Source of the DNA: Geotalea uraniireducens Rf4
Lineage (GTDB): Bacteria > Desulfobacterota > Desulfuromonadia > Geobacterales > Geobacteraceae
DNA: 32,000 nucleotides
Reading direction: 5' to 3'
NCBI RefSeq assembly: GCF_000016745.1
Contig: NC_009483.1
Span: forward strand, 1,680,001 to 1,712,000
In this document: piece after piece, positions 22,561 to 24,793 of the stretch
Position numbering within the stretch: position 1 is the stretch's first letter
Layout: every line of letters begins with the position of its first letter
Program-made: the position numbers and the translations under genes
Notes under the pieces: generated by a model
Databases searched by the model: none
Seen by the model: only the letters and a program-made list of their open reading frames with translations
Told to the model about the DNA's origin: nothing

Positions 22561-22699
22561 TGATCCTATAAAAAGCATTTTAGCCACGAATTTGCACGAA
22601 TCTATAAGCTCTTGTGATGCAGAAGACACTCACCAGATCGGTGACTCCCTCAAGACTTAACAAATGGTTAATAATATTCGTGTTTATTCGTGTCATTCG
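22561..22699 (+). repeat. ~165-bp repeat element, copy 2, left part (5' exon of the intron)
   Basis: It matches the reverse complement of 7404-7552. CACGAAT is at 22585 and 22595. ATTCGTG is at 22676 and 22686, and ATTCG at 22695-22699 is cut by the intron. Confidence 0.85.
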
Positions 22700-23267
22700 G
22701 TACGCCAGGCCAAGCCTGGCTGATCTATCTGACTGAAAAGTGTCAGACATGTAAATTGCTCGTTCACCATGTAGTCGCGGTCTGTCACGAGAGGGTAACC
22801 AAACGTGGGGAGTAAGACCGGTTCTTTGTAAGAAAAGAGCGAAGGGTACGATAACTACCCTGACGACGAAGACGCGAGCCCAGCGCAAGCGAACCCGTTT
22901 CGGCCTCGTTACACGTAGTTGACAGTGGCCAACCTTCCGAATGTGGTGAAGCCTGTCACCCACCGGTGATAAACGAGCGAAAGAACCGGTGGGACTGTCC
23001 GGGGTGATTGGGGAGGGCGCGTGTCGAAAGATCAGCCGAGGAACCTGGGAGGTCCGACGTAATTCCCAAAGCGAAAGGGTTTCGCCGAAGGGAGAACGCC
23101 GACGGGGAATCAATAACCCGCCAAGCGTGTACGGTCGGAATTCGGAGCGGCCCATAGTAGCCGGGAAGCGGGGTAATGCCCGTGGAGCCAAGGGGCCGTA
23201 CTTCAGTCATGTTTACACGGAAAGAGAGGAGACCCGCTTGAGCGACAGACGCTCCATAACGGAATGG

Positions 23268-24572
23268 ATGGCCGAAGGATTCGAACCTGAACCCGGACTG
23301 CCGGTAAAAGTCTCCCTTCTGCGGTGGAAACTGAGCAGCAAGGCCAAACGAGAACCGCAGTTCCGGTTCTATGCCCTTTACGACCGAATCCATCGTCGTG
23401 ATGTACTTGAAACGGCGTGGTTGCGAGTAAAGGCGAACAAGGGCGCGCCGGGAGTCGATGGTGTCAGCATTGAATCCATCGAGGTGCGGGCAGACGGAAT
23501 ATCCGGCTATCTTGACGAAATTCAAGAAAGCCTGAGAACCAAAAACTACAAACCATCCCCGGTGCGTCGCGTCTACATCACCAAGCCCAACGGCAAACTG
23601 CGCCCGCTCGGCATACCGTGCGTGCGGGACAGAATTGTACAGGCAGCCGTACTCCTTATCCTCGAACCGATATTTGAGGTGGACTTTCTCGACTGCTCCC
23701 ATGGATTTCGTCCCAAAAGGCGTCCCCATGGAGCCCTCGACCAAGTCGGTAATAACCTCCAACTCGGACGGCAGGAAGTGTATGACGCGGATCTTTCGAG
23801 CTACTTTGACAGCATCCCCCACGAGCACCTGATAGTAGAACTTGAGCGGCGCATAGCCGACCGGAGTGTCCTCAAACTGATCCGGCAATGGCTTCACAGT
23901 CCGGTAGTAGAAGAAGACGGCAGCATCAGCCGTCCCAAACAAGGGACGCCACAAGGCGGGGTAATATCTCCCCTTCTTGCCAACATCTACCTTCACCGGC
24001 TCGACCGGGCCTTTCACGAAGAAGCAGACAGCCCCTACCACTTCGCCAGAGCGCGCATGGTACGGTTTGCCGACGACTTCGTAGTAATGGCCAGACACAT
24101 GGGCAATCGCATAACCGGATGGCTGGAAGAGAAACTCGAAACAGACCTTGGACTCAGCATCAACCGTGACAAAACCGGTATTGTCAGAATGAACAAGAAA
24201 GAGAGCCTGAACTTTCTGGGATTCACCCTCCGCTATGACCGTGACCTGCGGGGCAGAGATTGGGATTATCTCAACATCATGCCGAGTAAGAAGGCCATAG
24301 GAGCACTCAAGGGAAAAATCCGGGAGAAGACCCGAAGCGGATACAAAAAGCCGCTTGTCGAAGCAATTGCCGAGGTAAACAGCATCCTTCGCGGATGGGG
24401 CAACTACTTCGACTACGGGTATCCCCGGAAAGTATTTCGAGACGTGAATCATTACACGAGGACTCGCTTTCGAATATTTCTGAACAATCGGAGCCAAAGG
24501 CGGAGCAAACCCTTCAGGGCAGGTGAAAGCCTGTATGCCGGACTTAAGCGATATGGTCTGGTTTACCTGTAA
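23268..24572 (+). CDS. group II intron reverse transcriptase/maturase
   Basis: RT blocks are [60 protein letters not shown] and the RFADDFVV (YADD variant) motif. The maturase X region is ILRGWGNYF. There is no HNH tail. The start is assumed to be ATG 23268. Confidence 0.92.
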
Positions 24573-24623
24573 CAGCAAAGCCACAACTCCTCAATAATGC
24601 CGTGCAGCAAGAGGCTGATAGGT

Positions 24624-24656
24624 AAGCCGTATGCGGGAAATCCGCACGTACGGTTT
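24624..24656 (+). ncRNA. group II intron domain V (catalytic hairpin)
   Basis: AAGCCGUAUGCGG GAAA UCCGCACGUACGGUUU, with an AGC triad at 24625-27, a bulge and a GAAA tetraloop. This is a near-consensus DV. Confidence 0.9.
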
Positions 24657-24772
24657 GACGAGGGGGAGCTGGTTAAGGCAACTATGGTAAGGCTACTTAG
24701 GCACCGCCAAACGAAAGGGGCGGAAACGGACAAGCCAAACCTAATGATGTAGTAACCTGCTTCCTACTCTAC

Positions 24773-24793
24773 TGGCTAATTGCCGTTTTTGGG
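24773..24793 (+). repeat. ~165-bp repeat element, copy 2, right part (3' exon)
   Basis: TGGCTAATTGCCGTTTTTGGG matches the reverse complement of 7385-7403 (TGGCTAACTGCCGTTTTTGGG) with one substitution. Confidence 0.85.

Follow-up and report, generated by a model that had tools for sequence, protein, structure and literature searches.

The DNA analysed here, a 32,000-nt stretch of the Geotalea uraniireducens Rf4 chromosome (contig NC_009483.1, positions 1,680,001 to 1,712,000, hereafter the window), contains a full-length group II intron of 2073 nt on the plus strand. The intron interrupts one of two copies of a quasi-palindromic, non-coding repeat of approximately 165 nt, which lie in the window inverted relative to each other: copy A, which is uninterrupted, and copy B, which carries the intron. 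It is highly probable that this intron is an intact retroelement, composed of a IIB-like ribozyme and an endonuclease-less reverse transcriptase (RT)/maturase, which homed to a palindrome built of phased heptamers, and that this choice of target is a habit of the whole lineage to which the intron belongs. Coordinates are collected in Table 1, and loci from other sequences are cited by L number.

The limits of the intron, 22700 and 24772, follow from comparison with the empty copy. The 5' flank (...ATTCGTGTTTATTCGTGTCATTCG) has its last base at 22699, the intron opens with GTACG at 22700 (GTACGCCAGG) and closes with CTCTAC at 24772 (...CTTCCTACTCTAC), and the 3' flank TGGCTAATTGCCGTTTTTGGG occupies 24773-24793, while on the minus strand of copy A (7427-7383) both flanks are joined without interruption (...ATTCGTGTTTATTCGTGTCATTCGTGGCTAACTGCCGTTTTTGGG). 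With the intron removed, copy B aligns with copy A over approximately 165 nt, the arms being 85-90% identical. The 24-nt array ATTCGTGnnnATTCGTGnnATTCG occurs within the window at two sites only, one in each copy, and gave 0 matches in 100 shuffles. Because the uninterrupted junction ...ATTCGTGG... is present at more than 120 loci of other genomes, the empty site is not an artefact of deletion. An earlier note on this DNA, made from the sequence alone, had read an inverted, contiguous copy at 7385-7552 as a true empty site; that reading stands, and only the span of the copy had to be corrected, to 7383-7547.

The terminal inverted repeats of the host repeat measure approximately 45 nt and contain two to three phased heptamers. 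The left arm of copy B carries CACGAAT at 22585-22591 and 22595-22601, its centre of approximately 75 nt includes a small hairpin, and its right arm carries ATTCGTG at 22676-22682 and 22686-22692, followed by ATTCG at 22695-22699, directly before the intron. A tail of the GCTAATTGCCGTTTTTGGG type, as found beyond the intron in copy B, also follows related introns in L135, L137 and L174. In copy A the minus-strand empty site falls between 7404 and 7403, and the plus strand offers a symmetric second potential site, after 7525 (ATTCG/TGGTTAAAATG, the slash here and below marking the insertion point). A direct repeat of 5 bp without mismatch, TTCAT on the plus strand (7378-7382 and 7548-7552), bounds copy A, and one matching at four of five positions, TTGAT/TTTAT (22560-22564 and 24794-24798), bounds copy B; both may be target-site duplications of the palindrome, the cases being too few to be sure. 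Folded as a hairpin, the intron-free copy B gives z = -4.8 and copy A a weaker z = -2.4. A strong bidirectional terminator-like hairpin (AAAACAGGCGGAGC...GCTCCGCCTGTTTT, 7328-7372) stands between copy A and a cupredoxin-like gene (6888-7298). A pair of CTTCGCG heptamers near 21030 was dismissed as coincidental; it lies inside a gene that reads as IHF/HU-type (by eye from its translation, with no family search).

The ribozyme is recognisable at its 3' end, where the Rfam family RF00029 (domains V and VI) matches 24622-24772 with 53.3 bits (gathering score 40) and ends on the final base of the insert; this match and the uninterrupted paralogue bear out the exact limits given in the earlier note. 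In domain VI the pairing of GAG/GGGGAGC with GCUUCCU-A-CUC can be read straight from the sequence, and the bulged branch-point A is presumed, from the RF00029 alignment, to be 24766, the seventh base from the 3' end. The ribozyme portion amounts to approximately 770 nt (2073 minus 1305), and the open reading frame (ORF) coding for the intron-encoded protein (IEP) is placed between the D1-D3 region and domain V, that is, in domain IV. The Rfam D1-D4 families gave no match to the intron. A consensus fold of its first 560 nt, calculated with RNAalifold from nine homologues, has covarying helices around both exon-binding sites (EBS1 and EBS2). The 3' end, AC, fits the consensus AY, while the 5' end departs from the consensus GUGYG in having A for G at position 3 (GUACG), a peculiarity already pointed out in the earlier note and now found in 17 of the 18 homologue loci fetched via the protein; because it is conserved across the lineage, GUACG is a lineage trait and not a product of decay.

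The IEP has Pfam matches to RVT_1 (9.8e-32) and GIIM (1.2e-13), the latter ending at residue 412 of 434 with nothing beyond, and scores 387 bits against the NCBIfam equivalog for group II RT/maturases, TIGR04416 (cutoff 300). The claim that it has no endonuclease domain thus extends to its relatives: in 119 of the 120 listed homologues, the 119 in which the motif GWxNYF was found, the C-terminus lies 53 residues past that motif, and because the proteins stop there the lineage is without this domain. In having no D/En (HNH) region past domain X, the IEP agrees with the endonuclease-minus lineages (classes A, C, D, E, F and g1-g4). The nearest solved RT is the GsI-IIC RT (4.9e-61), and no plasmid-borne IEP in PLSDB, Sinorhizobium records included, exceeds 45% identity, the best, from several lineages, being 41-45% identical. 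Relatives of the IEP number in the thousands, those of 70-92% identity residing mostly on metagenome contigs of approximately 2 kb, as is expected because a multicopy repeat breaks assemblies. One related locus, L178, contains an ORF-less deletion derivative of the intron (93-1015), in which the 5' approximately 570 nt are fused to the last approximately 280 nt and which still precedes a TGGCTAA-type 3' exon.

The exon-binding sites pair with two successive heptamers of the array. In the window the pairing with the intron-binding sites (IBS1 and IBS2) is perfect, with 6 bp for EBS1 and 5 bp for EBS2. Together IBS2 and IBS1 cover the end of heptamer 2, the initial 5 nt of heptamer 3 and the 2-nt spacer between them, a register also seen in homologues. 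Both pairings had been proposed in the earlier note from complementarity, and the consensus fold agrees with them, as EBS1 occupies a terminal loop of domain I and EBS2 an unpaired strand, neither falling within a paired stem. As in the IIB arrangement, the EBS1 hairpin has the internal loop of EBS2 just upstream of it, and the helix between the two (GACAGU/ACUGUC) covaries.

Both sites also vary with their targets among homologues. EBS1 is CGAAUG opposite the 5' exon CATTCG in the window, CGAAAG opposite TTTTCG (L134, L152), CAGAGA opposite (A/T/C)CTCTG (L125-L135, L161) and CGAAGG opposite CTTCG (L122), and the mean EBS1/IBS1 pairing, 4.91 of 6, was as high as the best of 2000 permutations of introns against flanks. 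At EBS2 it is the third base (22913) that goes with the target: in 14 of 17 introns its identity, A or G, matches that of heptamer position 6, T or C. Among relatives, heptamer spacing moves the register of IBS2, so that EBS2 pairing is weaker there.

Table 1. Coordinates of the intron, its host repeat and related cassettes (window positions, except for the cassettes, which are given by locus).
Feature	Position	Strand	Basis
Copy A of the host repeat, uninterrupted	7383..7547	-	alignment to intron-deleted copy B
Copy B, 5' part: tail CCTATAAAAAGCATTTTAGC, left arm, centre, right arm	22565..22699	+	alignment to copy A
IBS2 (CGTGT, 22689-22693) and IBS1 (CATTCG, 22694-22699)	22689..22699	+	complementary to EBS2 and EBS1
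Group II intron, 5' GUACG ... CUAC 3'	22700..24772	+	uninterrupted paralogue; RF00029 match ends at 24772
EBS2, ACACG, 12-nt single-stranded 5' side of internal loop	22911..22915	+	RNAalifold consensus
EBS1, CGAAUG, 10-nt terminal loop of domain I	22938..22943	+	RNAalifold consensus; covariation with IBS1
IEP, 434 aa, RT + maturase (X), no D/En domain, motif FADD	23268..24572	+	Pfam, NCBIfam
Domain V, AAGCCGUAUGCGG-GAAA-UCCGCACGUACGGUUU, 34-nt hairpin with AGC triad	24624..24657	+	RF00029 alignment
Domain VI, approximately 70-nt insertion distally	24658..24772	+	RF00029 alignment (...CCUACUCUAC)
Copy B, 3' part: TG completing heptamer 3, then tail GCTAATTGCCGTTTTTGGG	24773..24793	+	contiguous with arm in copy A
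GxxExxY cassettes	L052 3677-4110; L074 ~690-1270; L070 565-1130; L096 5926-6420; L068 889-1490; L146 1750-2214

The preference for heptamer arrays is shared by the related introns, for which 47 loci were retrieved via the invariant 5' end of the intron in addition to the 18 fetched via the protein. Relatives at the equivalent position of an array are 69-99% identical in nucleotide sequence, and nearly all relatives lie directly 3' of a phased array and split a heptamer of the form NTYYG/YG after base 5, the forms seen being ATTCG/TG, CTTCG/TG, TTTCG/TG, CTCTG/TG or CTCTG/CG, CTTTG/CG, ATCTG/YG, CTCCG/CG and ATCCG/YG. Among 56 distinct 25-nt 5' flanks, the terminal pentamer was repeated 8-10 nt upstream with at least four of five bases in 44 (79%), compared with 7.8% of control positions drawn at random from the same loci, and was repeated exactly in 30, compared with 0.7%. 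At least two inverted heptamers were present 50-300 nt upstream in 22 of the 41 loci with enough upstream sequence, the control mean being 0.52 per locus, which identifies the arrays as distal arms of palindromes. The suggestion in the earlier note that the intron follows a safe-haven strategy, homing to a multicopy non-coding element, is thereby much strengthened, and widened from one insertion to a lineage that sits in heptamer arrays throughout.

These flanks bear on the idea that the window insertion was a one-off ectopic retrotransposition, its true homing site being elsewhere and the heptamer context a coincidence. Some relatives do lie in flanks without an array (L143, L168, L179), and EBS1 pairing is imperfect in several others, as such an origin would allow. 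It is nevertheless very improbable given phased arrays in 79% of the 56 flanks against 8% of controls, the covariation of both EBS1 and EBS2 with the type of heptamer, and the perfect 6 + 5 bp pairing in the window.

Comparison of whole elements shows that both arms of the palindrome are used by the intron lineage. L145 and L170 carry introns 99.4% and 99% identical to that of the window in the opposite arm, at the equivalent of the plus-strand site after 7525 in copy A, within elements whose identity to copy A along the aligned stretch is 91.6% (L145) and 81.8% (L170). Intron copies of 99.4% (L138, L145) and 99.3% (L147) identity each have a different 5' flank, and near-identical copies with different flanks point to recent movement. 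The 3' exons of L138, L145, L147 and L170 are identical for at least 100 nt (TGCCTCCCAACCTTTAGTCTC...) while their 5' exons differ, which is due either to assembly chimeras spanning the multicopy intron or to downstream sequence mobilised along with it.

Such copies also bear on whether the intron could be a dead relic, that is, an old insertion that has lost splicing and movement. The departure of GUACG from GUGYG could be taken in this sense, as could the FADD motif, which is a minority state (23 of the 120 listed homologues), the lack of a promoter in a scan described below and the ORF-less derivative in L178. Set against these are an ORF, ribozyme landmarks and EBS/IBS pairs that are all intact, the fixation of GUACG across the lineage and the occurrence of 99.3-99.4% identical copies at different sites in other samples, so a relic is unlikely. 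The intron is real and probably active, and it would be expressed, splice and be mobile at present.

The host repeat belongs to a family that extends far beyond the window. A scan with ATTCGTGnnnATTCGTGnnATTCG, taking one genome per species, returned at least 120 loci, compared with approximately 4 expected by chance (a rough estimate), and the matches listed include Flavobacterium and other Bacteroidota, Planctomycetota, Acidobacteriota, Chloroflexota and Verrucomicrobiota, as well as Zetaproteobacteria, Sulfuricella and Desulfococcaceae; the array is also present in 30 IMG/VR contigs (L186-L215). The typical left half reads (TTTTA)GCCACGAAT-nn-CACGAAT-nnn-CACGAAT, followed by a centre of approximately 10 to more than 100 nt, and the typical right half reads ATTCGTG-nnn-ATTCGTG-nn-ATTCGTGGC(TAAAA), with two to four phased heptamers per arm. 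Elements form tandem mosaics in L068, L087 and L105 and sometimes adjoin sister elements with other heptamers (CACAGAT, CACGGAT), the variants within the family being CACGAAT, CACAGAT, CACGGAT, CGCAGAG and CGCAAAG. Readings of the heptamers as sigma-54 sites, DnaA boxes or P1 parS box A were rejected because the spacing is wrong and because sister subfamilies use quite different heptamers (CGCAGAG, CGCAAAG).

The long hairpin fold of the element (z = -4.8) and the strong terminator after copy A would be in keeping with a repeat that is a functional small-RNA gene or regulatory region, in which case splicing of the intron would matter to the host and the repeat would not be selfish. Searches tell against this. 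The two window copies gave no Rfam family at E <= 10, only a terminator look-alike beside copy A, nor did 18 loci from other phyla at gathering score; a sigma-70 promoter scan upstream of both copies found nothing above the shuffle background; and clustering of the neighbouring genes of 120 element loci, which are unrelated, gave no transposase and no common neighbour apart from GxxExxY. Tandem arrays, one nested insertion, an occasional ORF and the 5-bp duplication around copy A are instead typical of mobile repeats, and a small-RNA gene or regulatory region can be given hardly any credence.

The one recurrent cargo of the family is an ORF of approximately 125 aa. In L052, L070, L074 and L096 the arms enclose it, and in L068 it adjoins tandem units. 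The two cargo ORFs that were scanned are both GxxExxY proteins (TIGR04256, PD-(D/E)XK-like; 1e-38 to 1e-41), and their position within a palindrome may represent a homing-endonuclease-like arrangement. In L146, which was fetched via the intron and not via the heptamer, an intron of the lineage occupies the CTTTGCG arm of a GxxExxY-bearing cassette. The termini of L074, where the ORF lies between CACGAAT and ATTCGTG arms, are the same as those of copy B in the window (TTTTAGCCACGAAT...ATTCGTGGCTAAAA). Both window copies have no ORF in their centre of approximately 75 nt and so differ from GxxExxY or 23S ribosomal RNA (rRNA) intervening sequence (IVS) cassettes, which enclose one. From architecture and shared termini, we infer that the host belongs to a mobile, IVS-like family of palindromes, as a member without an ORF; the window copies would be ORF-less derivatives of ORF-bearing relatives. 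L170 also contains a second palindromic element (approximately 13990-14190; ends CTGATTAGCACTAATCTTCCG...), nested in the centre of its copy A-like element and bounded by the 8-bp direct repeat AATGTTTT.

The arrangement in the window can be accounted for by reverse splicing of the intron into one arm of the host repeat, with the target picked by base pairing. EBS2 (ACACG) would read the end of heptamer 2 and EBS1 (CGAAUG) the spacer and the first five bases of heptamer 3, which would therefore direct insertion to the point after base 5 of ATTCG/TG; in relatives, EBS1 and EBS2 are altered to match the local heptamer. The elements would offer many harmless, near-identical landing sites, one per strand per element. 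Reverse splicing may proceed into DNA that is transiently single-stranded at replication forks, as reported for endonuclease-minus introns like RmInt1 (PMC8914252); lacking an endonuclease, the intron would presumably prime complementary DNA synthesis from a nascent strand at the fork, as RmInt1 does, and the palindrome would present a target whichever of its strands serves as template for lagging-strand synthesis. Transcription would presumably be by read-through, and splicing would restore the palindrome.

Several observations weigh against this account or fit it poorly. The window IEP has FADD in place of the commoner YADD, which is found in 90 of the 120 listed homologues. For EBS3, no alignment column tracked the first base of the 3' exon except EBS2 position 3. 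EBS1 with the sequence CGGAAU fits its flank poorly in the metagenome contigs L121, L136, L137 and L176, and some contigs share a 3' exon yet differ in the 5' exon; contigs of both kinds may have arisen by ectopic insertion or by chimeric assembly across the multicopy repeat. When the repeat forms a hairpin or duplex, its target bases are engaged in pairing with the opposite arm. Upstream of the intron there is no promoter-like site and there is a weak terminator-like hairpin (22468-22483). The tie between the window element and the IVS or GxxExxY cassettes consists of shared termini and architecture, not of a demonstrated common mechanism.

Homing of the intron to the heptamer palindrome has counterparts among known systems. 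RmInt1 of Sinorhizobium meliloti (class D, IIB3), which homes to ISRm2011-2, likewise has an endonuclease-less IEP, and the window intron resembles it in combining a IIB-like ribozyme with EBS1 and EBS2 and in having a multicopy selfish element as a target that is read by base pairing; introns related to RmInt1 diversify their targets through EBS changes (PMC4615759, PMC8914252). Unlike that of RmInt1, the target here is not an insertion sequence but a short array of phased heptamers, set in a palindromic repeat that occurs across phyla and mostly has no ORF, and the 5' end is GUACG and the IEP at most 45% identical to any plasmid-borne IEP in PLSDB. IIC introns (class C), such as B.h.I1, GsI-IIC and the attC-targeting S.ma.I2, are also endonuclease-minus and specialised for a repeated structural intergenic motif, their targets being terminator hairpins or attC palindromes (PMC4424553, PMC12584367). 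They have no EBS2 and a ribozyme of approximately 400 nt, use short pairings together with recognition of a DNA hairpin and insert downstream of it, whereas the window intron pairs over 11 bp through EBS2 and EBS1 and inserts inside an arm of the palindrome; its ribozyme of approximately 770 nt with EBS2 means that it is not a IIC intron. Classes E and F and groups g1-g4, with which comparison was by description only, have endonuclease-minus IEPs and typical IIB RNA structure and come from similar phyla (Toro and Martinez-Abarca 2013, PMC3552965); targets are not discussed there, the words 'target' and 'repeat' being absent from that text.

The host element, for its part, is like the 23S IVS, with their four-helix-bundle S23p ORFs, and the GxxExxY cassettes in having an inverted-repeat stem, an optional small ORF and heptamers in the stem. 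In the 23S IVS of Coxiella, a stem of terminal inverted repeats encloses a small ORF, and there are three tandem heptamers, GACAGAT (PMC4990558). Unlike it, the window copies are intergenic and ORF-less, with heptamers spaced 9-10 nt apart rather than contiguous, and none of the examined loci showed an S23p ORF. [quoted passage not shown] REPs, however, are characterised by a GTAG-type head and come with a cognate RAYT transposase, whereas around the present elements no transposase or other common neighbour was found, and their invader is a retroelement that RNA pairing guides to its target.

The window intron is thus a case of ordinary EBS/IBS homing with an apparently unreported target specialisation; an intron in a repeat is by itself ordinary, and it is the lineage-wide specialisation for heptamers and the nature of the host element that add interest. 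The literature, coverage of which was incomplete, yielded no description of group II introns that have GUACG or that target heptamers, REPs or MITEs, so an earlier description is possible, and a full-text search with the heptamer strings returned primer coincidences only. A review from 2015 lists three target specificities for bacterial group II introns, namely homing sites, terminator motifs and attC sites (PMC4424553). That the present lineage adds a further strategy, coevolving with a CRCRRAN/NTYYGYG superfamily of heptamer palindromes of which two heptamers are read, switching between subfamilies through one or two EBS changes and living in a largely undescribed mobile family, is an attractive but tentative proposal, to which we would give slightly less than an even chance.

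The lineage would provide a natural example of endonuclease-less introns that persist by parasitising a harmless multicopy palindrome and retarget through small EBS changes, with the covarying EBS/heptamer pairs forming a ready-made natural retargeting series. Homing to such repeats explains the isolated contigs of approximately 2 kb on which related introns are assembled. For annotation, the phased-heptamer palindromes constitute a widespread and apparently uncatalogued family, sometimes with GxxExxY genes. The origin and mobility of IVS have been an open question since their discovery, and the palindrome family may connect to the unexplained origin of those in 23S rRNA.

Other features of the window lie outside the intron and its host repeat. 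Just downstream of the intron, 25316-30232 encodes an RHS/YD-repeat protein of 1638 aa, the C-terminal domain of which is like prokaryotic phospholipase A2; next come a DUF7942 ORF (30259-30540) and a second, 93-nt copy of the RHS core end with 82% identity (30592-30684), an order that suggests an orphan toxin-tip cassette. A heptanucleotide array at 6150-6341, (GGAACGA) x8 followed by (AACCTCG) x16.7 with 95% identity, occupies the intergenic space between the genes for an Fe/Mn superoxide dismutase (5536-6147) and a DJ-1/PfpI protein (6356-6859). The start of the ORF 15112-16092 contains a tandem repeat with a 20-nt unit (GGGCGGGGTTCTCGCGCCCT x3.5, 15120-15188).

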